Shown in pieces: positions 1 through 51,901 of a stretch of 64,000 bases of DNA. Numbering within the stretch: position 1 is the first letter of the stretch; every line of letters begins with the position of its first letter. Position numbers and translations under genes: made by a program. The stretch spans positions 24,725 through 88,724 of IMG/VR virus record IMGVR_UViG_3300036790_000261; one strand, given 5' to 3'. The notes beneath the pieces are model-generated. The model did no database searches. It had not been told where the DNA came from and saw only the letters and a list, made by a program, of their open reading frames with translations. The DNA is from a virus (taxonomy: Duplodnaviria > Heunggongvirae > Uroviricota > Caudoviricetes).

Positions 1-41
1 AAGATGATCTTCCCGCTGCCGGTGATGGAGGTGGTCAGCCG

Positions 42-635
42 GTGATCTCCGTGCTCTGCCCGTCCCGGGGTAACCCCGAGTGGCTGAAACGGTCGGCGAA
101 ATCCCTGCGCAGCACAGCCCGGGGTGAGTTCGAGCTACTGGTTGCCGCTGACGACGATGACCCTGTGACGATTGAGACGGCCGCGGAGGCGGCTGATACT
201 ACGGTCGTCTTGCCGCGGGCGGGTTACGCCAGGCTGCACGTTTACTACCAGGCGCTCGCTGATATCGCGGCCGGCGACTGGCTACTGGTCTGGAACGACG
301 ACTGCATTATGCTCACGCCCGGGTGGGACGTGATTATCAGGGCACTGCCGCCGGAAGTCCTCGTCGCTGACGTCCAGTCCCCGCACTCGCCGCTGTGCTG
401 CCTGCCTGCTGTCCGCCGCAGCGCAGTTGAGGCCATCGGCACGTTCAGCTCGGACAACCCGCACATCGATACTTTCTGGCAGGACGTCGCGAACTCCCTC
501 GGGGTGATGCGGGCCGTCCCTGTCCGCGCCAGCGTGGAATCACCGGTTAGCGCCAATTCCCACGGGTTCTACGAGGCGGGGCACCAGGAGCAGATGGCAG
601 CGTACGCGCAAGTTCTCCGGGAGGCACTAGCGTGA
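42..635 (+). CDS. glycosyltransferase-like protein (ORF open to window edge; true start probably upstream)
   Basis: No in-frame stop back to nt 1; GT-A-like stretch (LLVWNDDCIM...); stop overlaps start of next GT gene at 632-635. Confidence 0.4.
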   Translation: MISVLCPSRGNPEWLKRSAKSLRSTARGEFELLVAADDDDPVTIETAAEAADTTVVLPRAGYARLHVYYQALADIAAGDWLLVWNDDCIMLTPGWDVIIRALPPEVLVADVQSPHSPLCCLPAVRRSAVEAIGTFSSDNPHIDTFWQDVANSLGVMRAVPVRASVESPVSANSHGFYEAGHQEQMAAYAQVLREALA

Positions 636-1261
636 AGCCCCTCGTCAGCGTCATCACCCCGACCTGGCAGCGGCACGAGCGGCTGCTGAACCGCTGCGTC
701 CCGTCGGTCCAGGCTCAGGCGTACCCGCGGGTCGAGCACGTTATCGCCTGCGACGGCCAGGACCCGGAGCTGGCGCAGCGTATTGACAAGCTTGCGCAAC
801 GGGTTGGGGCCTTCTGCCACCCGGTGACGTTCGTTCACCTGCCTGAGCACGCCCCGGAGCAGCACTGGGGGCACCTGGCGAGGCTAGCCGGGATCGAGGC
901 GGCGAAGGGAGAGTACATCGCCTATGTCGACGACGACGACGCCCTGCGCTCCGATCACGTTGCCAAGCTTGCCGCCTGCCTTGACGCTGACCCGGAGGCT
1001 GGCTGGGCGTACTCCGTGATGGAAAGCCACAACAGCTCCGGGGCTACGCAGATCGGCTTCACCCCGCCGTCCTGCGGCCAGATCGGCACCCCGATGATCA
1101 TGCACCGCCGCGAGACACTACAGCACGGCACCTGGGGGCCCGCCTCTTCCGTTGAGGACTGGGAACTGGTGCAGCGCTGGATGAACGCCGGGGTCAAGCA
1201 CGTGCACTACACCGGGGTCACCGTAGACGTCTGGCCTTCCGCCTTCCACGAGCATTCATGA
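632..1261 (+). CDS. glycosyltransferase family 2
   Basis: N-terminal GT2 signature SVITPTWQRHERL, YIAYVDDDD acidic motif; translationally coupled to upstream GT. Confidence 0.65.
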   Translation: MKPLVSVITPTWQRHERLLNRCVPSVQAQAYPRVEHVIACDGQDPELAQRIDKLAQRVGAFCHPVTFVHLPEHAPEQHWGHLARLAGIEAAKGEYIAYVDDDDALRSDHVAKLAACLDADPEAGWAYSVMESHNSSGATQIGFTPPSCGQIGTPMIMHRRETLQHGTWGPASSVEDWELVQRWMNAGVKHVHYTGVTVDVWPSAFHEHS

Positions 1262-1282
1262 GCCGCATGGTAGCGTGACGCC

Positions 1283-1461
1283 ATGAGTACACCTGAGCCT
1301 CTTGACGAGCGCCCGGCCGGGGCGGTAGAGATCCGCGGCGGTGACAAGCCCGAGGACTTCATCCCCGGTCCAGGCTTCCGCACCGGCAGCGTTGAAGAGC
1401 TGCTCGGTAAGCATGTTCCTTACGCTTCGTGTGACTGCGGCTGCGAGGACGGGTCTGAGTG
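1283..1461 (+). CDS. small hypothetical protein (59 aa, below ORF-track cutoff)
   Basis: ATG 1283, stop overlaps GTG start of methyltransferase (TGAGTGA). Confidence 0.25.
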
Positions 1462-2034
1462 ACCCTCGACGTCTTCACGGCCGCCCAGCAGACGATCCGG
1501 CACGTGCAGAAGGAAGAGCACCGCTGGTTCAAGCAGGGCGACCCGACGTCTCCGACGCTGCCCTGGATGCCGTTCCAGCCCGCCGAGTTCCTCTCGATCC
1601 TCTTTGAGTGCGTCCCTGAGCTCGCGGGCCGGGAGTTCCTGGACGTCGGGTGCGGCCCCGGCACCAAGATGCGCCTGGCCCGCGACTTCTTCGGTATGGA
1701 AACTGACGGTATTGAGATTAACCGCGAGATGGCCGTTGCCGCCGCCCCGCATGCCTCATGCCCGGTAACCACGGGCGATGCGCTGTCTGTCGGCCCCGGT
1801 TTCTACAGCGGCTATGACCTGATCTGGCTTTACCGGCCGTTCCGTGACCCGCAGCTGGAGACCCGGCTTGAGGCCCGGGTCATGGACGAGATGAAGCCCG
1901 GCGCGATCCTGGCCGGCGCGCACTGGGAGATCTGCCCGGCGGACCACCGGTGGATTCCAGTTTTTGACGACTGGGAGATCCGCCGCGGCGCCTGGATGAA
2001 GCCCCGCCCTGTTGACGACGTGCCGCTGCCGTGA
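1459..2034 (+). CDS. class I SAM-dependent methyltransferase
   Basis: Motif I FLDVGCGPGTK, GIEIN post-I motif; GTG start. Confidence 0.6.
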   Translation: MTLDVFTAAQQTIRHVQKEEHRWFKQGDPTSPTLPWMPFQPAEFLSILFECVPELAGREFLDVGCGPGTKMRLARDFFGMETDGIEINREMAVAAAPHASCPVTTGDALSVGPGFYSGYDLIWLYRPFRDPQLETRLEARVMDEMKPGAILAGAHWEICPADHRWIPVFDDWEIRRGAWMKPRPVDDVPLP

Positions 2035-2300
2035 CCGCGCTCTGGGACCTGCTGCCCCCCGCGATCGTGACGCGGGCTAAGGCGATCGTCGCCGTCATCG
2101 GCGTCACCGGGTTCATCGTCGTCAGCTTCTTCCCGTCGCTCGCCACTGATCACTACGTGGCTGCCGCGATCGCCGTGCTCACCGCCCTCGGCGTCTGGGG
2201 CGTGCCTAACCAGAATGCTAAGACCGAGCGCCCTGTGGGGTTGCGTCACGCAGACGGCACCCCGTACGTGTACAAGGAGAAGCGGCGGCACGAGCGGTGA
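2031..2300 (+). CDS. small membrane protein
   Basis: Two hydrophobic helices; overlapping stop/start with flanking genes. Confidence 0.4.
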   Translation: MTALWDLLPPAIVTRAKAIVAVIGVTGFIVVSFFPSLATDHYVAAAIAVLTALGVWGVPNQNAKTERPVGLRHADGTPYVYKEKRRHER

Positions 2301-2524
2301 CTGCCGCGCAAGCGTGGCCGTGGGCGCTGTCGGCAGTGACGCTGCTTAGTGTCTGGGTCATCGGGCTAAAGCGGCACGAGGGCTGGCTGATTGGCCTGGC
2401 CGCGGAAGTCTTGTGGGCAGTGTGGTCCGTGCTGTACCACGAATGGGGCTTCCTGGTGTCCGCCGGGGCGTTCAGTGTTATCTACGCCCGAAACTGGTGG
2501 CTGTGGCGGTCAACGGCAAGCTGA
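2297..2524 (+). CDS. small membrane protein (2 TM, holin-like topology)
   Basis: WALSAVTLLSVWVIGL and LIGLAAEVLWAVWSVLY hydrophobic segments. Confidence 0.4.
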   Translation: MTAAQAWPWALSAVTLLSVWVIGLKRHEGWLIGLAAEVLWAVWSVLYHEWGFLVSAGAFSVIYARNWWLWRSTAS

Positions 2525-2539
2525 CTGCCACGTGGCAGT
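2524..2539. promoter_or_regulatory. conserved palindrome ACTGCCACGTGGCAGT (copy 1 of 6)
   Basis: Perfect 16-bp palindrome immediately after a gene 3' end; same sequence at 18153, 30787, variants at 41955, 50893, 56556. Confidence 0.5.
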
Positions 2540-2610
2540 TGAACTAGGATTGAACCGATACCCGAGGCCGTAGTCTGCGGAGCCGGGGCGTACCTGACGA
2601 AGGATGCCCT

Positions 2611-2928
2611 GTGACCTCTATCCCGCTGTTTAACCGGCCCGACGAGTGGTTCTGCCCCAACTGCGATGTCACCGATGTCACCGCGCCGCTGCCGCCCGGC
2701 CAGTCCCGCTACCACCCCTGCCCCGGCCTGCACGGGCTCAACGCCCCGCTGATCCGCCAGGGCGTGAACGTCAAGGTAGAAGCGCACGAGCGCGAGGACT
2801 ACCTGAACGGCGACCTTCAGCAGACAGGCGACAACGGCCGTGTCTACATGAACGTTGAGGTCACCCGCGAGGACGGCACGGACGTTACTGTCTTCGCCGG
2901 GCTCGCCCGCGCAGAGATGAAGGTGTGA
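2611..2928 (+). CDS. hypothetical protein
   Basis: ORF with high GC3; ATG preceded by GAAGGATG region. Confidence 0.4.
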   Translation: MTSIPLFNRPDEWFCPNCDVTDVTAPLPPGQSRYHPCPGLHGLNAPLIRQGVNVKVEAHEREDYLNGDLQQTGDNGRVYMNVEVTREDGTDVTVFAGLARAEMKV

Positions 2929-2931
2929 GCC

Positions 2932-3453
2932 GTGACCTGGACTACCTCAGCGATCTTCCAGCAGGCGGCGCTCAATCCACTGCTCGGTAAGGCCACCGGG
3001 TCTACGAACCCCACGACTTTCGGCAGCTGGACGGCTGACACCATCAACGTCGCGCTGTTTCTAACGGGCGCTACCCCGGACAAGACCGCCGCCGTCGGTA
3101 GCACGGGTTACAACACGGGTGTCTGGACGACAGGTAACGAGGCCCCGGGCACGGGTGGCTACACGCAGGGCGGAACCGCACTCGCCTCTAAGGCGAACAC
3201 TATTGACTCGGGTTCGTCTTCGCTGTGCTTCACCGCGGCTAACCCCTCCTGGACTAGTGCCACCATCTCTAGCGTGTTTGGCGACTTGGTCTACGACATC
3301 ACGATTGCTTCAGCGGGTAGCACTGTCGCCAAGCAGGGGTTCTGCTTCAACTACTTCGGCGGCTCGCAGGGCGTTACGGCGGGGACGTTCACGATTCAGT
3401 GGGCTACCCCGCCCAGCGGTGCCGTTACCGCGGTTTTCAACTTCGCTGTCTGA
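2932..3453 (+). CDS. hypothetical Thr/Gly/Ser-rich protein (probable virion-associated)
   Basis: High GC3; GTG start overlapping upstream stop; composition like neighbouring 3486 gene. Confidence 0.4.
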   Translation: MTWTTSAIFQQAALNPLLGKATGSTNPTTFGSWTADTINVALFLTGATPDKTAAVGSTGYNTGVWTTGNEAPGTGGYTQGGTALASKANTIDSGSSSLCFTAANPSWTSATISSVFGDLVYDITIASAGSTVAKQGFCFNYFGGSQGVTAGTFTIQWATPPSGAVTAVFNFAV

Positions 3454-3485
3454 CCCTTCCGGCTACCGCCTGAGGGGAGGCCGCC

Positions 3486-4991
3486 GTGGCCACGCTTACC
3501 CGCGTTCAGCACAACAGCATGACGACGACCAGCACCACGGCCACAAACTTCAACACAACCCTTGGTGCCGGGGACACGGTCGGCAACCTGCTGGTAGTCA
3601 CCATTGTGCTGGGCACCAACGGGCTTACGCTGACAGCCCCCTCTGGCTGGGTTCAGGCGGGTTCCTCGGAGGTCGTTTCCGGGTCTCTCGATACCCGGAT
3701 CTATTACCTGGTGGTCAGCTCGGGCAGCGTCACTAGCTTCAACTGGAGCTTCGGCGCTACCGCGCACTCATTCGGCTGGACCATCGACGAGTGGAACAGC
3801 TCTTCCGGATGGCAGGCTAGCCCGGTAGACAGCACCGCCGGGGCCGTTCACACGTCACCGTCGACTGCGGTCAACTGCGGTACCCCGTCGGCGACGACCC
3901 AGGCGTCTGAGCTGTGGCTCGGCGTGCTGTCCTGGGCGAACAGCGGGCAGACGCTGTCGGGTGTGACCGGCGGCTGGTCGACCGGCGATACCGCTACGTT
4001 TACCGGCCAGAACACGCAGACGGCGTTCTTCCAGATCGCCACGACGACCGGCACCCCGAGCCTCGCCGCCACCATCAGCGCGTCCACGGTCAACGCGGGC
4101 GTTGTCGCCACCTTCATGCCCGTCGCCGGCACCACCGTTAACGCGGGGCTCGCCACGGCCACCGGGCTTGCGCTTCAGGTTCCGTCTAACGCCCGGCTCG
4201 CCACCGCTACAGGTACTGCCCTCCAGGTCCCGGCGCCTGCTGGCCTGGCTACGGCTGCCGGCGCTGCGTTCAAGCCGCTGTTCACCGTCCCGGCCCAGCT
4301 GGCGACCGCGACCGGCACCGCGCTGCAGGTTCCGTCTAAGGCGGGGCTCGCCCACGGCACCGGCAGTGCCTTCCAGGTTCCGGCCCCGGCTGGCCTTGCG
4401 CACGGCGCGGGCAGCGCGTTCACCCTCACCCCGTGGAAGGACACGGTCTTCGCGGGGCTGGCCGCGGGCTTCGCCGAGACGTTCCAGCCGACCCCGCGCA
4501 TCCTGCGCACCCCGCTGAACCTGGGGGCGGTGCTGACCGAGGTCACGGCAGACGGCTTCCTGCGTGTAGCCACCGCTGATGCTACGTTTACCCTCGCGGA
4601 CTACGGGGCTACCCTGGCACTAGCTAACTTCGGCGCAAGCCTGACGGGATGGACGATGCAGACGGCCCCGCTGACTCTTAACGAGTTCAACGACGTCACC
4701 ATCAGTATCACCGTGACGCAGAACGGCAGCCCGCTCAACCTGACCGGCGACACGCTTAACCTGCTGCTGAAGACGGCGCCGAACACCCCGGACTCCAGCG
4801 CGCTGATCTTTTCCTCGGCTGGCGGGTCCCCCGCGATCGTCATCACCAACGCAGCTGGCGGCCTCGCTACCGCGATCATCCCGAACACCGACCTCGACGC
4901 CGAGACCTACACGTTCTACCGGCTCGACGTGGTCAGCGGCGGCCTGACCAACACCACGCTGTACGGCAGCGTCGTCTGGATCTCGCTATGA
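3486..4991 (+). CDS. hypothetical structural protein with six ~16-aa tandem repeats (AGLATATGTALQVPSx)
   Basis: Repeat block at nt ~4141-4440; Thr-rich N-terminus. Confidence 0.45.
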   Translation: MATLTRVQHNSMTTTSTTATNFNTTLGAGDTVGNLLVVTIVLGTNGLTLTAPSGWVQAGSSEVVSGSLDTRIYYLVVSSGSVTSFNWSFGATAHSFGWTIDEWNSSSGWQASPVDSTAGAVHTSPSTAVNCGTPSATTQASELWLGVLSWANSGQTLSGVTGGWSTGDTATFTGQNTQTAFFQIATTTGTPSLAATISASTVNAGVVATFMPVAGTTVNAGLATATGLALQVPSNARLATATGTALQVPAPAGLATAAGAAFKPLFTVPAQLATATGTALQVPSKAGLAHGTGSAFQVPAPAGLAHGAGSAFTLTPWKDTVFAGLAAGFAETFQPTPRILRTPLNLGAVLTEVTADGFLRVATADATFTLADYGATLALANFGASLTGWTMQTAPLTLNEFNDVTISITVTQNGSPLNLTGDTLNLLLKTAPNTPDSSALIFSSAGGSPAIVITNAAGGLATAIIPNTDLDAETYTFYRLDVVSGGLTNTTLYGSVVWISL

Positions 4992-6022
4992 GCGCCACCG
5001 TCTATTACGACAACCCCGCTGAAGCCGCGGCCGTCGTCCCGGTGACCTTCACGTCACTGGCGGGCGCTGTTACCGACCCGGCCTCGATCAGCTGCGTCAT
5101 CACTGACCCCACTGGCACGGCAGCGACGTACACCTACCTGGGCAGCGGGCCGAACAACACGATCACCCGCTCGTCTGCAGGCAACTACGCGCTGAGCATC
5201 ACCGGCCTGGTCCTCGCCGGGCTCTATGTCGGCACCTGGGTGGGCACGGGCAACAACGTCCAGCAGGTCACCCCGACGACCTTCCGGATCGTGCCGCTGT
5301 CGGCCGTCGGGACCGGCATGAACCTGTGGTACACCGGCCGCGAGGAGCTCAAGTCCCGGCTGAACATCACCGACAGCAACTCGGACTACGAGATCCAGAT
5401 CGCCATTCAGGCCGTTACCAACTGGATTAACAATTACTGCGGGCGGCACTTCTACCAGCTGGCCGAGACACGTACCTACGTGCCGACGAACATCTGGGAA
5501 CTGCCGGTCGACGACCTGGTGTCCACCCCCGCGGTCGCCGCCGCCACCCAGGTCAACCTCGACTACGACGGCGACGGCATCTACGAGGTCGCCTGGGGCA
5601 ACCCGGCCCCGCCCATCGGCAACGGGCTCAACTACGTGCTGAAGCTCGGCACCCCCGGCGGTTACGAGGACAACTACAACGTCAACAGTGCAGGCGTGCC
5701 CCGGCCGTACACCCAGCTGCAGGCCCTCATGTCCGGGCAGGGGCAGAACCCGGCAGGCGGCGGCTGGCTCCCGTTCATCTGGCCCTACACCCACCTCAAC
5801 CGGGTGCAGGTCGTCGGGACCTGGGGCTGGCCCGTCATCCCGCCAAGCGTCCAGCAGGCGTCCATGCTGCTGTGCACCGACGTGTTCAAATCCAAGGACG
5901 CACCCTGGGGTATTGCTGGTACGGCCGAGACCGGGCTGATGCGGGTGACCTCATCACCCTGGGTGGTGGAGCTTTTGCACGATTTTGTAAATACTCGCAG
6001 GAAGGTGGGAGTTTTATACTAA
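4988..6022 (+). CDS. head-tail connector-like protein (gp6-like domain with N-terminal extension)
   Basis: TGREELKSRLNITDSNSDYEIQIAIQAVTNWINNYCGRHFY resembles phage gp6-like head-tail connector motif. Confidence 0.4.
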   Translation: MSATVYYDNPAEAAAVVPVTFTSLAGAVTDPASISCVITDPTGTAATYTYLGSGPNNTITRSSAGNYALSITGLVLAGLYVGTWVGTGNNVQQVTPTTFRIVPLSAVGTGMNLWYTGREELKSRLNITDSNSDYEIQIAIQAVTNWINNYCGRHFYQLAETRTYVPTNIWELPVDDLVSTPAVAAATQVNLDYDGDGIYEVAWGNPAPPIGNGLNYVLKLGTPGGYEDNYNVNSAGVPRPYTQLQALMSGQGQNPAGGGWLPFIWPYTHLNRVQVVGTWGWPVIPPSVQQASMLLCTDVFKSKDAPWGIAGTAETGLMRVTSSPWVVELLHDFVNTRRKVGVLY

Positions 6023-6043
6023 GGCTTTGCGTATGCTGTCTTC

Positions 6044-6553
6044 ATGCGCGAGGTCCAGTTGCACGGGAAGGTAGCCGCCGGACGTGTCGCCCGGGTCGAC
6101 GCCGCTGACTACGAAGAGCTGATGCAGTACCGCTGGCTCGGCTGGGAAAAGCCAGCGAGCGAGTATCGAAGGTCTAACGGGCCCTACGCGTGCCGCCAGT
6201 ACCGGGTGGACGGCAAGAGCGTGCTGCTGTTCATGCACACGTTTCTCACAGGCTGGAGGCGGACAGACCACATTGATCACGACGGGCTGAACAACCAGCG
6301 GTACAACCTGCGCGAGACCACTACGGCTCACAACGAGCACAATTCCCGGGCACGGATCAACACGTACTCCAGGTATAAGGGTGTCACCTGGTCGAAAGCC
6401 TCGCGGAAGTGGCAAGCTGGCATCAGAGTAGACGGACACTTGTACTACCTCGGTCAGTTCACTGACGAGAAGGAAGCCGCTCAGGTGTACGACACAGCTG
6501 CTATGCGTGAGTTTGGGCCACACGCCGTTTTCAACTTCCCGGAGGGCAAGTGA
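6044..6553 (+). CDS. HNH homing endonuclease with AP2 DNA-binding domain
   Basis: HIDHDGLNNQRYNLRETTTAHN HNH motif; YRGVTWSKASRKWQAGIRVDGHLYYLGQFTDEKEAAQVYD AP2 domain. Confidence 0.75.
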   Translation: MREVQLHGKVAAGRVARVDAADYEELMQYRWLGWEKPASEYRRSNGPYACRQYRVDGKSVLLFMHTFLTGWRRTDHIDHDGLNNQRYNLRETTTAHNEHNSRARINTYSRYKGVTWSKASRKWQAGIRVDGHLYYLGQFTDEKEAAQVYDTAAMREFGPHAVFNFPEGK

Positions 6554-6661
6554 AGCTACGTGTGCTTGTGCGGCTGGAGGACTGGTGGTGTCACCGGCTG
6601 GAGCTCCCGGGTCACCGTCGGTTCTGTGACAAGTTTGACGCCTGGGTCCTAAGCTAAACAC

Positions 6662-6934
6662 ATGGGATACGACGGAAAGTACGGCAAGGTCACTACTGAG
6701 CACGGTGACATCCCCGACGACGAGCCGGTCATCGTCTTCCGTGCTCAGGACCGGCTGTCCGTCAGCGTGCTCCGGGCCTACTTCGAGCTGTGCAGGGTGG
6801 CGGGCAGCCCGCAGCGGCACCTCGCGCTTGTCTCGGGTGCGATCCGGCGGTTTGCCGACTGGCAGGAAGCGCACTCAGGGCAGACGAAGGTCCCGGACAG
6901 CGAGCGCAGCAGGGCGTGGATGCCGGAGGTCTGA
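6662..6934 (+). CDS. hypothetical protein
   Basis: ATG ORF, good GC3. Confidence 0.35.
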   Translation: MGYDGKYGKVTTEHGDIPDDEPVIVFRAQDRLSVSVLRAYFELCRVAGSPQRHLALVSGAIRRFADWQEAHSGQTKVPDSERSRAWMPEV

Positions 6935-7122
6935 TGGGCAGGTTGCACGGCCGGGCCTGCATTCTGTACTTGACGGACGATGACGGCAGGGTGCTTGAAG
7001 TTCCCGTCGGAGACTGGACAATCGATTACGCGGGGTACCCCTCGGTGCCGGTCATGCGGTTTCGAGTCGTAGGGCCATCGGACGGGATCTTTCATGGCGC
7101 CCAAGGCGAAGGTGAAGGCTAA
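6934..7122 (+). CDS. hypothetical small protein
   Basis: ATG overlapping upstream stop (TGATGG). Confidence 0.3.
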   Translation: MGRLHGRACILYLTDDDGRVLEVPVGDWTIDYAGYPSVPVMRFRVVGPSDGIFHGAQGEGEG

Positions 7123-8185
7123 AGGGGTCGTTACCCCGAAGAACAACGCCGCCCCGACGGGCCTGCACCTGTCAGCCGCGCAGCGCAAGGCGTACAACGC
7201 GACATTCACTGCCTCCGCCACGGCTGGCTTCCAGAAGCTGGCCCTTGCCCAGCGGCGGCAGGCGATCGCGAACGCGGCCCAGGTGCTGCGCAACTCCCGG
7301 CTGCAGGCAGCCGCCACCGTCCAGCAGAAGGCCAGCGCCGCGCACCAGGCGGCCCGCACCGCCGCGATCGCCAGGTTCGCCGCTCAGCAGACCTACCGGC
7401 AGGGCCGGCTAGCCCACCAGAACGCTGCCCTCCAGGCCCGGCTGTTCGCCGACTACGAGCGGCACATCCAGGTTGCCGCCCGGCTGCAGTTCGCTTACAA
7501 GGGCGAGAAGGCGTACGCGCACGAGGCTGTCATGCGGACCCTTACCACTGCTGCGGCTACCAGCATCGAGGAAGCGCTGTTCGCCCGTGCCGCCAAGACC
7601 GCGAAGAAGGCGGTCAGCACCGTCGGGAACCCGCAGTCCAGCTCGCCCGCCGCGGTCAACGCCCGGCTCGGCGCCGCGCAGGTCATCGCCAGCGCCAAGG
7701 CCGCCGCGCTCGCCGCCGCCCGTGCCACTCCGGCCGGCCGCACCGCCCCCCGCCCTGGGCCCGTCAAGCTGCGGGCTCCCGGCATGTACAAGTGGCGAGG
7801 TGACCCGGACGGGTATGACTGCGTTGCCGCGGCGATCATGAACAGTTGCCAGCAGGCCACGGGCTACCGGTTTTCCGATGTCAAGTACATGGTCCTGGCG
7901 GCCGAGCTCGGGCAGTGGCCGGAGGGGCCGCCTATCGAGGACGCGCTGAAGTACGTGAAGAACAATTGGGAGATCCTAGGCGCTCCCCGCCTGGTGAGCT
8001 ACGAGCCGGTTCCGGTGCACGCCCGTGACCACTGCGTTACTGGTTTCGCCACGGAGAACGGGTCGCATGCCGCCCTCATGTCCGGTCCCCGGTACGTCAT
8101 CAGCTGGGGCCAGCTGCTTCTTCTTGACGACGTGATCCTTCCGGGAACTGAGGTTGAAGAAGCCTGGGCCCTGCTGTGGAAGTAG
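7094..8185 (+). CDS. hypothetical protein, Ala/Gln-rich coiled-coil N-terminus; C-terminal Cys/His domain (possible peptidase)
   Basis: DGYDCVAAAIMNSC ... HCVTGF ... GSHAALM arrangement suggests papain-like Cys/His dyad; low certainty. Confidence 0.4.
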   Translation: MAPKAKVKAKGVVTPKNNAAPTGLHLSAAQRKAYNATFTASATAGFQKLALAQRRQAIANAAQVLRNSRLQAAATVQQKASAAHQAARTAAIARFAAQQTYRQGRLAHQNAALQARLFADYERHIQVAARLQFAYKGEKAYAHEAVMRTLTTAAATSIEEALFARAAKTAKKAVSTVGNPQSSSPAAVNARLGAAQVIASAKAAALAAARATPAGRTAPRPGPVKLRAPGMYKWRGDPDGYDCVAAAIMNSCQQATGYRFSDVKYMVLAAELGQWPEGPPIEDALKYVKNNWEILGAPRLVSYEPVPVHARDHCVTGFATENGSHAALMSGPRYVISWGQLLLLDDVILPGTEVEEAWALLWK

Positions 8186-8194
8186 GCTAGCCGC

Positions 8195-8653
8195 GTGTCG
8201 AACATCACCGTCGTGCGCGAGGCCCTGGCCACCCAGATAGGGCAGCTCGCGTTCCCGGCGCTGCGGTCCCTGCCGGAGATGGAAGGGCAGGTCAACCCGC
8301 CGGTCGGGATCGTCATGCTGGGCGCTGCGAACTACGGCACCACCTTGCAGGGCGCGACCGGGTTCCTCGGCGGCGGCGTGACGATCGCCCCGACGGACAT
8401 CGCCCTTGACTACCTGATCCTGGTAGCCCAGGCGTCGACGGTTGAGCGGTTCGAGGCTGCGCTAGCCGCCTGGCTCGGCTTCGAGAATGACGCGACCGCG
8501 GTGTCCGTGCCGGCTGCCGTTGCCGCAGACTCCTCGCTGGGCGGTACTGTCGCCTGGTGCGTCGCGAACTCAGCGGACCGGCCCGGCCCTGTTGAGTGGA
8601 ACGGCGTGCACTATTTCGGTACCCGCATTCACTTCAGCGTGTCCCTCCAGTAG
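8195..8653 (+). CDS. hypothetical structural protein
   Basis: Position between head-tail genes and major tail protein. Confidence 0.4.
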   Translation: MSNITVVREALATQIGQLAFPALRSLPEMEGQVNPPVGIVMLGAANYGTTLQGATGFLGGGVTIAPTDIALDYLILVAQASTVERFEAALAAWLGFENDATAVSVPAAVAADSSLGGTVAWCVANSADRPGPVEWNGVHYFGTRIHFSVSLQ

Positions 8654-9825
8654 AAGGAAGTTACGGCCGGCCGAGAGCGCTTCGGTCAACTAGGAGGTGG
8701 TGCCGGGGTGGCTCGTATCTTGCTAGTTCACCCGGGTTTAGCCCGGACTTTTCGGTTGCTGACGTCTACCGGGGCTGGGAAAAAGCGCTTCGGAAGCTCG
8801 GCCACACGGTCATGGCCTTCAATACCAATGACCGCCTGACTTACTACGGGCACGCCCGGATGCCCGACCACGACAAGCCGGTGTGCGAGGTGTGTGACCA
8901 GGTCCCGACGCACCAGGCCCTTGACGGTGACGGCATCAAGCAGCTGGGCATGGACGGCCTGTACAAAGAGCTGTACCTGTTCTGGCCGGACGTGGTGTTC
9001 TTCGTCTCCGGGTTCTACATGACCCCGGCGATGCTGCAGGTGATCCGCACCCGGCGGCACAAGATCGTCATGCTGCACACCGAGAGCCCCTACCAAGATG
9101 AAGAGCAGATGCAGCGCGGTCAGTTTGCTGACCTGAACCTGCTGAACGACCCGGCGAACCTCGAAGCGTGGAAAGAACTCGACGTCCCCGTTGCCTACAT
9201 GCCGCACGCTTACGACCCGGACGTGCACTACCCCGACTGGCGCAGCGACCGCTACGAAGCTGACTTCGCCTTCATCGGCACCTTGTTCAAGAGCCGGGCT
9301 GAGTTCTTCAGCAAGATGGACTTCACGGGCCTGAACGTCGCGTTCGGCGGGGGTGGCTGGGACATCGCCCTGCACGACTACCCCGAGCTAGTGAACACCG
9401 TGGTTGACGTACAGCGGAACACCCGGCTAATCGACTACCTCGCCCACCCGCTAGACTCCTGCGTCGGAAACGACGAAACCGCGGACACCTACCGCAAGAC
9501 CAGGGTCGGCATTAACTTTTACCGGCGCGAAGGTGAAGACAGCCAGGCGCAAGGCTGGGCGATGGGACCGCGCGAGATCGAGATGGCCGCCTGCGGGCTG
9601 TTCTTCCTGCGCGACCCGCGGCCCGAGTCCGACGAGGTGCTCGGGCACATCCTGCCAGCGTTCGGCTCGCCGGAAGAGGCGTCAGAGCTGCTGCACAGCT
9701 GGATCGGCTACGGAAACCGCCGGGTGTACGCGGCTGAGCGCGCCTACAACGCGATCGCGGCCCGCACGTTCGGCAACAACGCTCGCGCGGCACTGAACCT
9801 GATGGAAGAGGCGGGCATCTTGTGA
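8596..9825 (+). CDS. glycosyltransferase-like protein (GT1/CgeB-like); start uncertain (ATG 8596 or ATG 8812)
   Basis: C-terminal region resembles CgeB/GT1-like glycosyltransferase fold; no GTG/TTG between 8596 and 8812 in frame. Confidence 0.4.
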   Translation: MERRALFRYPHSLQRVPPVEGSYGRPRALRSTRRWCRGGSYLASSPGFSPDFSVADVYRGWEKALRKLGHTVMAFNTNDRLTYYGHARMPDHDKPVCEVCDQVPTHQALDGDGIKQLGMDGLYKELYLFWPDVVFFVSGFYMTPAMLQVIRTRRHKIVMLHTESPYQDEEQMQRGQFADLNLLNDPANLEAWKELDVPVAYMPHAYDPDVHYPDWRSDRYEADFAFIGTLFKSRAEFFSKMDFTGLNVAFGGGGWDIALHDYPELVNTVVDVQRNTRLIDYLAHPLDSCVGNDETADTYRKTRVGINFYRREGEDSQAQGWAMGPREIEMAACGLFFLRDPRPESDEVLGHILPAFGSPEEASELLHSWIGYGNRRVYAAERAYNAIAARTFGNNARAALNLMEEAGIL

Positions 9826-9937
9826 GCATAGATATTTGCGGGAACCAGTGGGCCGATTCCGCTAACGACGGGCATCACCAGCGTCATGTCTGCGGGGAGG
9901 AAACAGACGGCAGTGACCACACGCACGTGTGCGCCTC

Positions 9938-10207
9938 ATGCGGGGGGACGAAGTGATCTGCAAGAGCTGCCGGGACGCTGCGGCGCTGCTGCCTGAGGAA
10001 GAAGTTATCTACCAGCACCTTGACGGACGGCCGCAGGAAATGCTGAGCGGTCCCGAAGCGGCCCGGAAGATGCACGCCCAGTGCCCCGAGGTCGTCCGCA
10101 GGCAGGCCGGGAACCTGACCGCCGTCGAGCTTGTCGGGTCACCCTGGTGTGAGTGCCAACATATCGTCCCTGTTCTCCGGCCTGCGCTGGCGCCTACACT
10201 TAAATAG
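9938..10207 (+). CDS. small Cys-containing hypothetical protein
   Basis: ATG ORF with good GC3. Confidence 0.3.
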   Translation: MRGDEVICKSCRDAAALLPEEEVIYQHLDGRPQEMLSGPEAARKMHAQCPEVVRRQAGNLTAVELVGSPWCECQHIVPVLRPALAPTLK

Positions 10208-10260
10208 CAGCAGCCGTGGCCTGATCGCCCCAGGAGCCGGACCAGTCTCATTTTGAGAGG
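10207..10260 (+). promoter_or_regulatory. conserved upstream element copy 1 (GCAGCAGCCGYGGCC...GGAGCCGGMCAGT..TCATT..AGAGG)
   Basis: ~54-nt motif ending 9 nt before ATG of major tail protein; second copy at 12187-12233. Confidence 0.4.
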
Positions 10261-10269
10261 GTTCCGCTT

Positions 10270-10722
10270 ATGGGCCGTATCCATGGCCGTAACGGCATGG
10301 TGTACATGTCGATCCTGTCGACCGGCGCCGCGCAGCCGCTGGCGTTCGTTAGCGACTGGACGATGAACTTCACGGTCGCGAAGGTCGACGTCACTGCGCT
10401 CGGCGACACCAACCTCGTCTGGGTCGCGGGCCTGCCCGACGCCTCCGGTGACTTCACCGGCTTCATGGACACGGCGACCAGCCAGACCTACCAGTCGGCC
10501 GTCGACGGCCAGCCACGCAACTTCTACCTGTACCCGACACTGGTTGCCGTCAACGGCGGCCCTGGCAACTCGACGGTCAGTCCCGGCCAGTACTTCTACG
10601 GAACCATCCTTCCTGACTTCAGCGTGTCCGGTGGCGTTGCCGCTGCCGTCACGATGAAGTCGACGTGGAACGCCGCGTCTACCGTGGCGCGGTACCCGGC
10701 TAACGGCGTTCCCGGCACGTGA
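10270..10722 (+). CDS. major tail (tube) protein
   Basis: WTMNFTVAKVDVTALGD ... DASGDFTGFMDT ... NFYLYP pattern typical of siphovirus major tail proteins; sits upstream of chaperone pair and tape measure. Confidence 0.6.
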   Translation: MGRIHGRNGMVYMSILSTGAAQPLAFVSDWTMNFTVAKVDVTALGDTNLVWVAGLPDASGDFTGFMDTATSQTYQSAVDGQPRNFYLYPTLVAVNGGPGNSTVSPGQYFYGTILPDFSVSGGVAAAVTMKSTWNAASTVARYPANGVPGT

Positions 10723-10827
10723 CATTAGGACGGCCGCTTTCCAGGCAACGGAAAGCGGCCGTCTGCCGGTCACCTCATGTAGGGCGCCCTCGACAGCTCT
10801 GACCCTATATGAGACAGGACTAAACCC

Positions 10828-11328
10828 ATGCCCCCACGCAAGACCCGCCAGGTGGCGCCCGTTACTGACGCGGAAATCGCAGACACTGCGGAAACCCTCA
10901 ACCCAGCCGTGCCGCAGGACACGGTGCCTGAGGCGTTTAAGCCGAAGCGCGCCCGTGCTGCCCGCCGGGTTCAGTCGGCGACCGGTGACCCGAAGGTCCG
11001 GCTGCCTGAGGGCAAGCGCGCCGTCGAGGTCGCGGACGGGGTGCTGACGGCGGCGATCGCCGGGCGCAGCTTCCGGCTGACGGAGACGGTTGGCCTGATG
11101 CCGCTGATGGAGTGGGTCGCGGCGTCCGAAGGGGTCGACACCAGCAACGTGCCGACGATGCTCAGCTTCTACCGCGTGCTGCAGGACCTGGTGCATGAAG
11201 ACGACTGGGTGGCGTTCCGGGGGCACACCCGCGAGCAGAAGTGCGACGACACGGAGCTCATGGCGTTCCAGGCAGCGGCTATGGAAGCGCTCGCCGCGCG
11301 CCCTACCAGGCGGCCCGCAACCTCCTGA
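10828..11328 (+). CDS. tail assembly chaperone (G-like)
   Basis: Position between major tail protein and tape measure; acidic C-terminus. Confidence 0.55.
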   Translation: MPPRKTRQVAPVTDAEIADTAETLNPAVPQDTVPEAFKPKRARAARRVQSATGDPKVRLPEGKRAVEVADGVLTAAIAGRSFRLTETVGLMPLMEWVAASEGVDTSNVPTMLSFYRVLQDLVHEDDWVAFRGHTREQKCDDTELMAFQAAAMEALAARPTRRPATS

Positions 11329-11798
11329 GGTGGCTGCTCGGGCACTGGGCGAAGGTGAACGGCGACTTCCTGCGGGCTAGCGGGCACGGGCTAGAGGAGC
11401 TGGACGTGCGGGAGATGTGCGACGCTGCCTACTCCGCGATCGTGGCGGACGTTGAACGGAACTTCTACGCCCAGGTCGCGGCCGGAGCGCAGTGGAAGGA
11501 CAGCACGGACCCGCTCGGCGACACCATTGAGCGGCTGGAGGAGCGCCTCGGGCTGCGTGAGGACCCGGAGGCGATCGCCCTGGCGATGCACAAGGCGTTC
11601 ATGCTGTCCCAGGGCAAGGAGTGGGACGAGACGCCGGTCGGGGCGGGCAGCGGGCAGTGGTGGGACCAGGATGTGGAGTTCAGCGACATGAGCGACCTCG
11701 ACCAGGAAGCGAAGCGCCGCACCGCCGCCGAAACCAACCGGGGCCTGTTCGCGAAGAACCTGAAGCCGAAGAACCTGAAGCCGAAGGAGACGCTGTGA
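11241..11798 (+). CDS. tail assembly chaperone extension (T-like), probably made by -1 frameshift from 10828 ORF
   Basis: ORF in -1 frame overlapping last 88 nt of the G-like gene; canonical G/GT synteny; slippery site not identified. Confidence 0.4.
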   Translation: MRRHGAHGVPGSGYGSARRAPYQAARNLLRWLLGHWAKVNGDFLRASGHGLEELDVREMCDAAYSAIVADVERNFYAQVAAGAQWKDSTDPLGDTIERLEERLGLREDPEAIALAMHKAFMLSQGKEWDETPVGAGSGQWWDQDVEFSDMSDLDQEAKRRTAAETNRGLFAKNLKPKNLKPKETL

Positions 11799-11810
11799 CC
11801 TGGACACGCC

Positions 11811-12170
11811 GTGGCTAACTCGGTCAAGCTCGACCCCGCCGCGATCGAGGACCTGCTGAACTCCCCCGACGGGCCGGTGGGCCTAGTGATCGAGGAGCTG
11901 TCGGAGAAGGCCGCTGACATCGCCAAGATCCTCGTCCCGGTGATGAAGCGGCGCAAGTGGAACCCGCTGTACCAGTACGGGCCGCCTGGGGTGACTAGCG
12001 CGAGCATCCGGGCATCCGGGTTCCGCTACAACAAGCTCGGCCAGCTGTACTCCGGGGTAAACGTGAATTACGGGCCCACGCTGTTCCTGCAGCGGCCTGC
12101 CCGGCAGATCCACAGCCCGCAGTACATGTTCATGTCCCGGGCGCTAGACATCGTCACGGCCCTGGGATAA
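11811..12170 (+). CDS. hypothetical protein
   Basis: ATG ORF, good GC3. Confidence 0.4.
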   Translation: MANSVKLDPAAIEDLLNSPDGPVGLVIEELSEKAADIAKILVPVMKRRKWNPLYQYGPPGVTSASIRASGFRYNKLGQLYSGVNVNYGPTLFLQRPARQIHSPQYMFMSRALDIVTALG

Positions 12171-12186
12171 CACCGTAGAGTTATCG

Positions 12187-12233
12187 CAGCAGCCGCGGCC
12201 CGTCACCGGGAGCCGGCCAGTTCATTCAGAGGA
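12187..12233 (+). promoter_or_regulatory. conserved upstream element copy 2
   Basis: Aligns with 10207-10260; overlapped by 3' end of minus-strand HNH gene. Confidence 0.35.
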
Positions 12234-12767
12234 AGGGGGCAGGTGGCCCGGCTGCGCACGGCGCTTGTTTGCCTGCTGTTCCTTCCGCGTCGCCCAGCGC
12301 ACGTTACCCGGCTCGTAGTTCCCGTCGTTGTTGACCCGGTCCAAGGTCAGCTTCGGGTCCGGCTTCAGCCCGATCAACTGCTCGATCTCTGCGGCGAAGG
12401 TTCCGAAGTACCGCCACGCCAAGCAAACAGTGATGCCCCTGCCGCCGTAGTTCCGGTAGGCCAGCTGCTTCGGGTTGAAGCAGCGGTTCATCATGCCCGA
12501 CCAGGTTACGTACAGCGGGTGCGTACGCGTCAGGCCGTGCGTGGTCTTGTCCCGCTTGTTCGCTTCTGCCGTTCGAATGCCGTTGGCAACAGCCTGCGCG
12601 CGAACACGCGCTTGCTCTTCCGGGCGCTGTCGAGCCGCCTTGACCGCTGCGCGCTGAGTGCACCAGCACACCTGCGTGCTCCCCTTGAGGAGCTGCGTGA
12701 TCAGGGTTTCGTAAACGTTTCCGCAGTCGCAGAGCATGCGGGCGTAGCGCTTACGGTTTCGCCTCAC
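12222..12767 (-). CDS. HNH homing endonuclease
   Basis: Close paralog of 29233 gene (HPLYVTWSGMMNRCFNP...YRNYGGRGITVC...DRVNNDGNYEPGNVRWATRKEQ); opposite strand to surrounding late genes. Confidence 0.75.
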   Translation of the reverse strand: MRRNRKRYARMLCDCGNVYETLITQLLKGSTQVCWCTQRAAVKAARQRPEEQARVRAQAVANGIRTAEANKRDKTTHGLTRTHPLYVTWSGMMNRCFNPKQLAYRNYGGRGITVCLAWRYFGTFAAEIEQLIGLKPDPKLTLDRVNNDGNYEPGNVRWATRKEQQANKRRAQPGHLPPSSE

Positions 12768-18075: not shown

Positions 18076-18148
18076 GCGCGTGTAGCTCAGCGGATAGAGC
18101 ACCTGCCTACGGAGCAGGGTGCCGGGGGTTCGATCCCCTCCACGCGCA
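18076..18148 (+). tRNA. tRNA-Arg (anticodon ACG)
   Basis: Acceptor GCGCGTG/CACGCGC, D-loop TAGCTCAGCGGATAGAGC, anticodon loop CTACGGA, T-arm GGGGGTTCGATCCCC. Confidence 0.85.
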
Positions 18149-18151
18149 CTC

Positions 18152-37780: not shown

Positions 37781-39106
37781 GTGAACGACGAAGACTACGA
37801 CTGGATGGCTGGCCCTGCCACCGTCCCCCTTGAGCCTGTCCGCTCAGCCCCGCCGTGGGAGCTAGCGACGCTCACCGATACCCCCGTCGTGCCGGGCTGG
37901 CACACCGACACCATGACGATGGCCGCCCCGGGCGACCTGAAGGAGAACGACGATGATACTGCTGCCCGTCGGAGTGACGATCGCGGTCTACTCCGTGCTC
38001 GTGCTCGGGCTCGCCGCTCGCAGGTTCGCCCGGTGGACGCGCCGGATGTGGGCACCCGTACCCTGACGGTTATCGTCCCGGCGTATAACGAGGCGGCCGG
38101 GCTGCCGGAGACGCTGACCTCGGTGATGCGCCAGACCGAGGCGGCTGACCGGGTCCTGGTGGTTGACGACGGCAGCAGTGACGGCACCGCCGAGGTCGCC
38201 CTGGCCTACGGGGCTGAGGTACTGCGCCGGGACCAGTCGTCGGGCAGCAAGTCAGCAGCACTCAACTACGGGCTGCTGGAGTGCGACACCGACCTGGTGC
38301 TGAACGTGGACGGCGACACGGTTATCGCCGACAACTACGTCAAGCTGGTTAAAGCGGCATTCGCCGACCCGATGGTCGCCGTCGCCGCCGGGTCAGTCGG
38401 GGTGTGGAACCCCAAGGGCATCCTGCAGCGCGGGCGCCAGGCGGAGTACCTGCTTAGCTTCCACCTGTTCCGGCCGGTTCAGAACGCCTGGGGATCGCCC
38501 TTGGTGTGCTCGGGCGCGGCATGCGCCTACGACCGTGAGCCATTGGCTGCCGCGGGCGGGTTCCCGGATGACACCGTCGGGGAGGACATGGACTACACCT
38601 GGCGGATGATGCTCGCCGGGCGCAAGGCGGTGTACGTCGCCGGGGCTGAGTGCTACGCCATCGACCCGAAGACGACCGCGCAGCTGCGCACCCAGTTGTG
38701 GCGGTGGATGTCCGGCTACTTCCAGTGCCTGCGACTGCACTGGCGGGAGATCCTCCGGCACAAGAAGCTGCTGGGCTTGCTGGCGGTGCTGTCCGTCATG
38801 GACCTGCTCAGCCTCCCGCTGTGGCTAGCGACCCCGTTCGCGGTAACCGGCAGCGGGCGGGAGATCGCCGAGACGGCACTGCTCTCGCTGGTCGGCACCG
38901 ACCTGCTGATCTCACTGCCTGTCGTCCTAGTCGGCGCGGCCCGGCGCAAGATCAGCATCTGGTGGACGCTAGCGAGCTTCCCGTGCATCTGGGTGCTGCG
39001 GGCGTTCAACGCCTACTACTTCACCAAGGCAATGATCTGGGAGCTGGCCCTCGTCCCGTGCGAGTGGAAGACCAGCCTGTCCGTCTTCAAGAAAGGCCAC
39101 GCGTAA
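37781..39106 (+). CDS. processive family-2 glycosyltransferase (PgaC/IcaA/NodC-like polysaccharide synthase)
   Basis: VIVPAYNEA, DDGSSDGT, NVDGDT (DxD), QLRTQLWRW (QxxRW), C-terminal TM helices; alternative in-frame-shifted N-terminal TM ORF at 37953. Confidence 0.65.
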   Translation: MNDEDYDWMAGPATVPLEPVRSAPPWELATLTDTPVVPGWHTDTMTMAAPGDLKENDDDTAARRSDDRGLLRARARARRSQVRPVDAPDVGTRTLTVIVPAYNEAAGLPETLTSVMRQTEAADRVLVVDDGSSDGTAEVALAYGAEVLRRDQSSGSKSAALNYGLLECDTDLVLNVDGDTVIADNYVKLVKAAFADPMVAVAAGSVGVWNPKGILQRGRQAEYLLSFHLFRPVQNAWGSPLVCSGAACAYDREPLAAAGGFPDDTVGEDMDYTWRMMLAGRKAVYVAGAECYAIDPKTTAQLRTQLWRWMSGYFQCLRLHWREILRHKKLLGLLAVLSVMDLLSLPLWLATPFAVTGSGREIAETALLSLVGTDLLISLPVVLVGAARRKISIWWTLASFPCIWVLRAFNAYYFTKAMIWELALVPCEWKTSLSVFKKGHA

Positions 39107-39108
39107 AC

Positions 39109-40577: not shown

Positions 40578-40593
40578 GGTCAGCAGAAGGCGA

Positions 40594-51735: not shown

Positions 51736-51830
51736 CCTGGAACCCGGACCCCGGTTACGTGCTGATCTTGTCCGTTGTGTTCGCCGCGGCTGCCGCGACT
51801 GTCGCCCTGATGGTGCTGGGCGTTATCTGA
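51732..51830 (+). CDS. 32-aa single-TM peptide
   Basis: ATGA overlap with upstream gene; hydrophobic core. Confidence 0.3.
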   Translation: MTWNPDPGYVLILSVVFAAAAATVALMVLGVI

Positions 51831-51901
51831 GCCCCGTCCGCGAATTGAACGCGGGACCTCTTTCTTACCAAGAAAGCGCTCTTCCACTGAGCTAACGGGG
51901 C
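51830..51901 (-). tRNA. tRNA-Thr (anticodon GGT)
   Basis: GCCCCGT acceptor, TAGCTCAGTGG D-loop, anticodon loop TTGGTAA, T-arm CCGCGTTCAATTCGCGG. Confidence 0.8.

Follow-up and report, generated by a model that had tools for sequence, protein, structure and literature searches.

Gene order at the locus

The DNA analyzed here, a stretch of 64,000 nucleotides (nt) called the window below, is part of the genome of a virus of the class Caudoviricetes (IMG/VR record IMGVR_UViG_3300036790_000261, positions 24,725 to 88,724). Among its virion genes it carries a cassette of sugar-modifying enzymes and glycosyltransferases, one of which, GT3, is interrupted by a short coding gap just upstream of the gene for the major tail protein. 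We lean, with reservation, towards the reading that the enzymes embedded in this virion module glycosylate the phage's own virion proteins.

The window is part of NCBI contig DASXDZ010000073.1 (122,349 bp; assembly GCA_036490375.1), whose proteins are labelled 'MAG TPA ... [Trebonia sp.]', an actinomycete. The phage is uncultivated, about 122 kb in size, and ascribed to a soil actinomycete as host; the host comes from metagenomic binning, and its assignment is tentative because phage contigs may have been binned with Trebonia by composition. The GC content of the window is about 65%, and more than 80% at third codon positions. The same Trebonia sp. metagenome-assembled genome holds a second related phage-sized contig (P0125; 117,224 bp), whose homologue of the window protein o173 is 84% identical.

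The view upstream of the window was extended by 10 kb from the same contig (L032; L032:8224-9414 maps with an offset of 9369) and by a further 10 kb from contig L119, whose overlapping gene is 100% identical. The order before the window is large terminase, portal, head protease, scaffold-like protein, major capsid protein (467 amino acids, aa), connector-like protein and the Ser/Thr-rich u176, u137, u208 and u677, followed by a GT4-like glycosyltransferase, a short-chain dehydrogenase/reductase (SDR) of the nucleotide-sugar dehydratase/epimerase kind, and a sugar 3-C-methyltransferase. The window continues with GT1, GT2, o59, a methyltransferase, two small membrane proteins, o105, o173, o501 and the head-tail adaptor; then come an HNH/AP2 insert, o90, o363, the tail terminator, GT3, o92 and the major tail protein; and after these a chaperone-like pair, o119, an HNH gene on the other strand and the tape measure gene. 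Position 1 of the window thus cuts into a larger glycan cassette, which has the capsid genes on one side and the head-tail adaptor on the other. The sequence-only reading had placed the glycosyltransferase and methyltransferase genes of the window among head-tail and tail genes, and this holds: adaptor, terminator, major tail protein and tape measure lie in the window, and portal, protease and capsid upstream of it.

Megablast of window positions 1-12000 against GenBank phages returned no match. The gene order is shared with many metagenomic viral contigs of 84-164 kb, and the longest contigs with GT3 homologues cluster at about 113-122 kb. Since the order was seen again in dozens of related metagenomic phage contigs, at protein identities of 43-89%, the arrangement is not a matter of chance. 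The features of the window that bear on the cassette are as follows.

1-45, plus strand: 3' end of the sugar 3-C-methyltransferase gene (396 aa; TcaB9/MtfC/KijD1-like), which begins upstream (mapped to L032)
42-635, plus strand: GT1, weakly called small glycosyltransferase of GT-A-like type (197 aa; NDD motif; PF00535 18.6 bits, under the cut-off of 23.3)
632-1261, plus strand: GT2, family 2 glycosyltransferase (209 aa; PF00535 61.1 bits against a cut-off of 23.3; PF13641 39.5 bits)
1283-1462, plus strand: o59, small conserved open reading frame (ORF; 59 aa) between GT2 and the methyltransferase gene (tblastn; same place in L001, L002, L013 and L014)
1459-2034, plus strand: class I S-adenosylmethionine (SAM) methyltransferase-like protein (191 aa), a weak call (sub-threshold PF13649 and PF07021; GxGxG motif)
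2031-2524, plus strand: two small membrane proteins, 2031-2300 (DUF7439) and 2297-2524; the calls draw on PF24220 at 32 bits, PHROG 4092 and 2421, and hydrophobic segments
2611-2928, plus strand: o105, small CxxC protein (next in line behind GT2 or the methyltransferase in L001, L008, L013 and L019-L024)
2932-3453, plus strand: o173, Ser/Thr/Gly-rich beta protein (27% Ser+Thr; 836 homologues; AlphaFold predicted local distance difference test score, pLDDT, 77)
3486-4991, plus strand: o501, fibre-like protein rich in Ser/Thr and with repeats, encoded ahead of the adaptor (26% Ser+Thr; weak BppU_N match)
4988-6022, plus strand: head-tail adaptor (PF05135 24.2 bits; PHROG 442 at 1.3e-17)
8195-8653, plus strand: tail terminator (PHROG 17840 at 2.8e-8)
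8657-8707, plus strand: conserved GT3 leader with a hairpin at 8669-8687 and the Shine-Dalgarno sequence GGAGG at 8693-8697 (read from the sequence)
8708-8740, plus strand: first segment of GT3, with GTG start, MARILLVHPG and then an in-frame TTA at 8738-8740 (matched to homologue starts)
8732-8746, plus strand: predicted recoding-site hairpin CCGGGU-UUA-GCCCGG of 6 bp with UUA in the loop (minimum-free-energy fold; 8732-8737 pairs with 8741-8746)
8743-9825, plus strand: main segment of GT3 (360 aa), GT-B fold, GT4-like, Pfam Glyco_trans_1_2 ('CgeB-like'; PF13524 35.1 bits against a cut-off of 25)
10270-10722, plus strand: major tail (tube) protein (PHROG 10528 at 9e-8), candidate acceptor of GT3
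13117-17997, plus strand: tape measure protein (1626 aa), the marker of the tail module (called from size and position; homologues at the same place in relatives)

Enzymes of the cassette

Two adjacent glycosyltransferase genes and a SAM-methyltransferase had been called at the left end of the window, and the three calls fared unequally. GT2 is firmly assigned from its sequence to family 2 of the GT-A glycosyltransferases, with the family match listed above and a YVDDDD stretch (a D-x-D type motif). Its homologues, 40-65% identical, were found in 20 viral contigs, with o105 and o173 next in line there; tblastn against GenBank phages gave only weak matches. GT1 is the weaker of the pair: it matches PHROG 14945 'glycosyltransferase' at 7.6e-10 and has no match among PDB sequences. 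The methyltransferase keeps its GxGxG motif, but its class I family matches stay below threshold and its matches to PDB methyltransferases are weak; homologues 45-68% identical lie straight after GT2 in relatives. Family searches gave no match for o59.

The two enzymes encoded just upstream point to a branched sugar. The SDR has dehydratase/epimerase signatures. The sugar 3-C-methyltransferase matches TcaB9 over its full length (PDB 4e2w, E 7e-40, residues 4-391) and also the D-mycarose 3-C-methyltransferase 4rv9; PF08421 and PF08484 are listed for the product. The full-length homology takes in both the zinc-binding N-terminal and the C-terminal domain, as in the nucleoside diphosphate-hexose enzymes TcaB9, TylC3 and KijD1. 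The 3-C-methyltransferase gene is missing from a near-identical variant contig (L034:2-1488 compared with L032:7331-10004), in which GT1 stands straight after the SDR gene; the content of the cassette therefore varies within the population.

In the mechanism we propose, the soluble SDR and the TcaB9-type 3-C-methyltransferase would remodel a host nucleotide-sugar, and four glycosyltransferases (the upstream GT4-like enzyme, GT1, GT2 and GT3), together with the further methyltransferase, would build methylated glycans on virion proteins. The building would take place in the cytoplasm, during or before assembly.

The same kinds of enzyme could in principle decorate phage DNA and protect it against restriction, as glucosylated hydroxymethylcytosine does in T4-like phages. 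Base modification is frequent in large phages, soluble GT-A and GT-B enzymes serve that purpose, and about 58 kb of the 122-kb contig lies outside the part scanned. We nevertheless regard DNA as a highly improbable target. Among the window proteins scanned, which include replication-side ORFs run against Pfam, there was no hydroxymethylase, no thymidylate-synthase-like gene and no other base-modification gene; a 3-C-methyl branched deoxysugar pathway with four transferases points to an oligosaccharide and not to a single sugar on DNA; and the genes stand in the virion module, not in the replication module.

GT3 and its place beside the tail tube gene

A third glycosyltransferase-like gene had been read at 8596-9825. 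The enzyme class is borne out, by the match to PF13524 and by a GT-B structural model, but the gene begins at GTG 8708 and most of it is read in the -1 frame from 8743. The AlphaFold model (pLDDT 91.4) has the two Rossmann domains of a GT-B enzyme, and its best Foldseek matches are GlgM, MshA, BshA, PimB' and SdgB, with a probability of 1.00 for the first four; SdgB is a protein Ser-O-N-acetylglucosamine transferase. On the strength of the model, the assignment of GT3 as a GT-B/GT4-like glycosyltransferase is firm.

Homologues of GT3 number 1827. Tblastn with GT3 against GenBank phages gave no match, a scan of genome contigs gave nothing, so that there is no isolate host, and a scan of metagenomes gave three loci only. 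When viral loci were collected by their tube protein homologues (49-89% identity), GT3 lay between the tail terminator and the tube gene in 52 of 58; three of the six loci without GT3 upstream of the tube gene have less than 1 kb of upstream sequence.

The region before and around the start codon is conserved as well. Over about 90 nt, from the leader hairpin to the gap described below, six genes with bodies about 75% identical show a mean pairwise identity of 85-96%, and the leader is near-identical even where the upstream gene differs. The leader hairpin (GGCCGA-loop-TCGGTC) shows pairing-preserving changes in relatives; it may be an element for processing, stability or attenuation.

Conserved position bears on what the cassette acts upon. 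One could suppose that its product is a glycosylated lipid or small molecule, or that its target is a phage or host protein outside the virion, and that its linkage to structural genes reflects co-expression only. TcaB9-type C-methyltransferases are otherwise known from antibiotic deoxysugar pathways, and the closest folds to GT3 include the small-molecule enzymes MshA, BshA and GlgM. Family scans of the region, however, found no aglycone-forming genes, and GT3 stays paired with the tube gene and GT2 with o105-o173, a conservation more simply read as an enzyme lying beside its substrate. We consider a product of this kind improbable.

The main rival is modification of the host envelope (teichoic acid, arabinogalactan-like or other surface polysaccharide, or host glycoproteins), which would block superinfection or aid release in the manner of Gtr systems, the place in the late operon being incidental. 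Phage glycosyltransferases frequently act on the envelope; two small membrane proteins come after the methyltransferase; the phage has other genes of envelope glycobiology at 37781-41472, namely a membrane family 2 synthase, a polysaccharide deacetylase and a glycoside hydrolase of family 16 (GH16); and the nearest NCBIfam matches of GT2, all far under cut-off, are cell-wall and exopolysaccharide enzymes. Yet no membrane segment or signal peptide is predicted in any of the seven cassette enzymes (GT1, GT2, GT3, the upstream glycosyltransferase, the SDR and both methyltransferases), whereas the unrelated cluster does have membrane segments (37781-40577; signal segments are also predicted within 37781-41472). 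Family scans of the region found no GtrA-like flippase, polyprenyl-phosphate transferase or integrase nearby, and envelope-modifying morons are seldom so tied to one structural gene as GT3 is to the tube gene. Overall, we judge envelope modification unlikely.

An in-frame UUA and a coding gap in GT3

Uninterrupted homologues of GT3 start MARILLVHPGPDFSV in a single frame, with the consensus M-A-R-I-L-(L/I/M/V)-V-H-P-G-P-D-F-S-V-A-D-V. In the window, GGAGG lies 11 nt before GTG 8708, and after codon 10 (...CAC CCG GGT) the reading frame is broken by a 5-nt gap, TTTAG/TTAGC; P-D-F-S-V resumes in the -1 frame with CCG GAC from 8743. The zero frame from GTG 8708 stops after 43 codons. The heptamer G_GGT_TTA occupies 8734-8740, and uninterrupted relatives read CCGGGNCCGGA at the same site. 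The gap interrupts the nearly invariant HPGPDFSV. TTA is otherwise almost absent: it accounts for one of the 15,950 codons in 51 window genes. The head-tail adaptor gene has that one in-frame TTA (6014-6016) as its next-to-last codon, shortly ahead of the HNH/AP2 insert.

The gap of the window, GGT TTA G(CC), was found unchanged in eight independent assemblies (the window, L004, L035, L037, L040, L041/L046 and L045), and other forms occur at the same site: GGT TGA GGC (L002; TGA, +6), GGA TTA A GGT (L038, L039 and L044; TTA, +7) and CCT TTA G CCC (L076/L077). Elsewhere in GT3, relatives carry GAT TTA G GAC before RLSFYG (L086:2330-2380), TAC TTA A ACC before FWPDVV (L084) and TAT TTA C CAG before (D/E)DEQLM (L082:50-80, L084 and L088:1860-1890); L084 has two gaps in one gene (2010-2050 and 2130-2170). 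At these three further positions the take-off and landing codons are synonymous or nearly so. In total, comparable TTA or TGA gaps lie at four GT3 positions across relatives. The codons on the two sides of the gap, at which a peptidyl-tRNA would take off and land, are synonymous in four forms (GGT/GGC, GGA/GGT, CCT/CCC and GAT/GAC) and in a TAT/TAC gap, so a peptidyl-tRNA hop of 4-7 nt would restore the exact conserved protein sequence.

Two other accounts of the frame break were discarded. Sequencing error is out, because the same gap appears in the eight independent assemblies, which come from NCBI, JGI, ENA, Logan and IMG/VR. A start at GTG 8596 is also out: the stretch it would add is not conserved, and in L004 the corresponding frame contains a stop ahead of the junction and offers no start codon there.

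It might also be thought that the window gene is decaying or N-terminally truncated, the 5-nt insertion being inactivating and the product starting at an internal ATG. The public record of the gene does give a 337-aa product from an internal ATG, and 14 of the 50 best GT3 homologues are annotated as N-terminally truncated; such a share shows how often annotation pipelines miss the gap. Against decay, all interrupted copies have an intact ORF of about 350 codons 3' of the gap, with synonymous divergence (pS) of 0.34-0.64 and a ratio of nonsynonymous to synonymous divergence (dN/dS) of 0.17-0.43, as in uninterrupted pairs. The ten codons 5' of the gap differ between interrupted genes almost only at synonymous sites, so that MARILLVHPG is kept through many changes; the region of the site is the most conserved part of the gene; gaps with TTA or TGA recur at four positions, and in many of them the take-off codon matches the landing codon; and initiation at the internal ATG would, judging from the model, remove strand beta-1 and helix alpha-1 of the Rossmann domain. 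These sequence comparisons show the interrupted GT3 genes to be under purifying selection, and a decaying or truncated GT3 is very improbable.

A naive scan of the window for more TTA-linked frame changes gave noise and missed even the GT3 site; it is uninformative for other genes. Rfam, run over the whole window, reported four tRNAs only and no known recoding or regulatory RNA. Since tRNA-Leu(UAA) is not among these four tRNAs, decoding of TTA relies on the host.

Possible routes of recoding

We infer that the GT3 gap corresponds to UUA-triggered bypassing of the kind described for the terminase of phage phiHau3, and two routes fit the variant in the window. Translation would start at GTG 8708, and after MARILLVHPG the ribosome would meet UUA, an almost unused codon. 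By the first route, peptidyl-tRNA-Gly would slip by -1 on G_GGU_UUA (GGT to GGG), giving HPG-(F/L)S-PDF; by the second, it would hop by +5 from GGU to the near-cognate AGC, giving HPGPDF. Both would resume reading at CCG GAC (8743). Normal decoding of UUA would end in a 43-residue dead-end peptide, and GT3 dosage would then depend on the supply of UUA-reading tRNA.

UUA-containing gaps of 7-10 nt are known from the large terminase genes of two prophages and of the Streptomyces phage phiHau3; Smith et al. proposed bypassing for them in 2013, and Antonov et al. supported it in 2023, with the junction peptide seen by mass spectrometry in E. coli (PMC10732093). GT3 shares with phiHau3 an in-frame UUA, a codon extremely rare in the host, with a short frame-shifting non-coding block behind it, the interruption of a highly conserved peptide, local hairpins around UUA and, in most GT3 variants, matching take-off and landing codons. 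It differs in being a glycosyltransferase and not a terminase, in another phage lineage and probably another host order. Its gaps are shorter (4-7 nt). In the window variant, unlike phiHau3, the landing codon is only near-cognate, and a classical -1 slip on G_GGU_UUA would also account for the frame change. The GT3 gaps further stand at four positions, with 14 of the 50 top homologues annotated as truncated, against three in 100 terminase genes.

A regulatory role may be imagined for the gap. Glycosylation of the tail tube would be gated by host state, GT3 being made only when UUA-reading (bldA-type) tRNA is scarce, as only in that state would the ribosome stall and then bypass or shift across the gap; particles from vegetative and from differentiating cells would differ in their glycan coat; and UUA micro-gaps would be a recurrent, possibly mobile, regulatory device at no fewer than four positions (that is, at least four). 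We regard this scheme as speculative and, taken as a whole, doubtful.

Candidate acceptors among the virion proteins

The proteins encoded beside the cassette had been described as rich in Ser, Thr and Gly, and this is so for Ser and Thr: together they make up 26-27% of the products of 2932-3453 (o173) and 3486-4991 (o501). The step from composition to glycosylation targets did not stand. The tape measure and minor tail proteins also contain 18-21% Ser+Thr, a level ordinary for phage fibre and tail proteins, and richness in these residues is thus no marker of a target.

In relatives down to about 40% identity, o105 and o173 come after GT2; a rubredoxin-like match at the CPNC of o105 is sub-threshold. 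A fold search with o173 against the PDB gave no significant match. In BFVD, the o173 model matches uncharacterised phage proteins, the 'Structural protein' of Agrobacterium phage 7-7-1 and tail-collar fibre proteins; going by the model, o173 is probably a virion fibre or decoration protein and a candidate glycan acceptor. Only the C-terminal half of o501 is kept in relatives. This gene holds a 48-nt tandem repeat at 4135-4232 (2.1 copies, 76% matches) that encodes repeated ...ATATGTALQVP... units.

In a related 117-kb phage (L105:579-13448), the cassette block lies upstream of u137-u208-u795, the opposite of the order in L032 and window 1-6022; cassette and o105-o173-o499 are displaced as one unit relative to u137-u208-u795. 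The two sets of fibre-like genes look like exchangeable modules between capsid and adaptor.

The tube protein, for which tblastn against GenBank phages gave no match, has a conserved C-terminal tail, RYPxxG(V/I/L)xG(T/S), with a final Thr or Ser in 37 of 38 homologues; capsid proteins end in GGAT(A/G), GGTS, GGAS or GPAT. Such ends are not specific, and the tails are accordingly taken as candidate acceptors only. From gene linkage, GT3 would most likely act on the major tail protein encoded just downstream, perhaps on its Thr/Ser-ending tail, and the block of GT1, GT2 and methyltransferase would most likely act on the fibre-like o173, on o501 and/or on the capsid protein.

Proposed virion glycosylation compared with known systems

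The sequence-only reading had likened the locus to the mycobacteriophages, in which phage glycosyltransferases modify virion proteins. According to later articles that cite Freeman et al. (2023) (PMC12363180, PMC11600133, PMC11256854), the capsid and tail tube of the phages Che8, Corndog and Myrna are glycosylated by transferases that the phages themselves encode, and the same articles report Che8 gp110 and Corndog gp38 to be essential. The window phage resembles these phages in having several glycosyltransferases and a methyltransferase with an actinomycete as host, and it resembles Corndog in that its enzymes are set among virion genes: the portal and capsid protease genes of Corndog flank three glycosyltransferase genes and one for a methyltransferase, so the embedding of such enzymes in a virion module has precedent. 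The analogy with Corndog in gene placement is apt, but it does not extend to sequence. Unlike the mycobacteriophage sets, the cassette of the window phage is larger, has a sugar-modifying SDR and 3-C-methyltransferase of its own, and includes a GT-B enzyme fixed between terminator and tube gene and apparently gated by a UUA coding gap. The system would work like the mycobacteriophage one and yet is no member of it by homology.

The only relatives in culture, the Streptomyces phages KimJongPhill and Zuko (Zukovirus), have a glycosyltransferase that shares 31% identity with the upstream GT4-like enzyme, across 96% of the latter's length. Genes 4-6 of these phages carry the annotations UDP-glucose dehydrogenase, methyltransferase and glycosyltransferase and border the virion module immediately ahead of the terminase gene; these are three genes at the genome end, whereas the window phage has seven to eight between head and neck genes. 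Tblastn found no GT3 homologue in either phage.

GT3 passes the Pfam threshold for PF13524, the family of Bacillus subtilis CgeB, and JGI names GT3 homologues 'spore maturation protein CgeB'. The likeness is at the level of the family, with no NCBIfam match, and the name is an automatic label and not evidence of function. CgeB is implicated in glycosylation of the spore surface, another proteinaceous shell. The GtrABC systems of serotype conversion likewise use phage family 2 glycosyltransferases to alter surface sugars; unlike them, the cassette has no flippase or membrane-anchored transferase, its enzymes are soluble and no integration module adjoins it.

Several points weigh against glycosylation of the virion. 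The idea of a virion glycoprotein was arrived at from genes and not from particles, and the host was assigned by metagenomic binning only. The fold and family of GT3 say nothing on its acceptor, given that GT4-like enzymes use lipids, small molecules, polysaccharides and proteins, and GT1 and the methyltransferase at 1459-2034 are weak family calls. BLASTP of the cassette enzymes against Che8 gp108-110 and Corndog gp35-38 revealed no meaningful similarity (at best GT2 against Che8 gp108, E 0.001 over 40 residues; all others E > 0.01). The two small membrane proteins after the methyltransferase could tie the cassette to the envelope. To our knowledge, a make-up rich in Ser/Thr and a final Ser or Thr are frequent among phage structural proteins not known to be glycosylated, and tube homologues without a nearby GT3 (L090 and L091) have the same C-terminal tail. 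For the recoding step, the structure downstream of the slippery site folds no better than shuffled sequences (z = -0.17), that is, there is no stimulatory structure, and the landing codon AGC of the window is only near-cognate to GGT (two of three positions).

Other features of the window

10828-11798, plus strand: overlapping ORFs 10828-11328 and 11241-11798, in the position of a tail assembly chaperone pair (kept upstream of the tape measure in relatives)
6044-6553, plus strand: HNH/AP2 gene between adaptor and o90, a likely homing-endonuclease insert; relatives lack it
12222-12767, minus strand: HNH gene before the tape measure gene, a likely homing-endonuclease insert
33167-34999, plus strand: 610-aa protein with a weak LAGLIDADG match, a likely homing-endonuclease insert
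37781-41472, plus strand: second carbohydrate cluster, unrelated to the cassette (membrane family 2 glycosyltransferase, polysaccharide deacetylase, GH16)

Family searches with ORFs 10828-11328 and 11241-11798 gave no match. Tail assembly chaperone pairs are normally made via a programmed frameshift. A perfect 15-nt tandem repeat at 11752-11786 ends ORF 11241-11798 and encodes KNLKP KNLKP. In the second carbohydrate cluster, the processive, PgaC/NodC-like family 2 enzyme (441 aa) is membrane-embedded and the deacetylase has an N-terminal hydrophobic segment; the cluster probably acts on a host envelope polysaccharide. The four tRNA genes of the window are Arg(ACG) at 18076-18149, between the tape measure and minor tail genes, Thr(GGT) at 51829-51901, Gln(CTG) at 52302-52375 and Met(CAT) at 56442-56517.

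Significance

Much of what the sequence-only reading described was confirmed, with the changes given above, and its interpretation is supported in part. The most unexpected element of the locus is the UUA coding gap in the tail-linked transferase GT3. It would bring many natural examples, in a new gene and a new lineage, to a very rare form of recoding known from three terminase genes. The comparative series spans four sites and a range of gap lengths, and with it one can test directly what governs take-off and landing and whether rare-tRNA supply plays a part. Current annotation pipelines mis-call GT3 genes as N-terminally truncated.

Virion glycosylation has so far been documented in a few mycobacteriophages only, where the glycans shield particles from antibodies. 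The system described here is new in its enzyme set: uncultivated soil phages of a widespread group (about 113-122 kb; 1827 GT3 homologues) have an unrelated, larger and more elaborate set wired into the order of their head and tail genes, with a branched-sugar pathway of its own that is otherwise known from antibiotic biosynthesis. This suggests that glycan-coated virions arose more than once and are common in soil. Antibody evasion is impossible as a role there, and the glycans would therefore serve another, such as adsorption, stability or evasion of lectin-like defences of the host.

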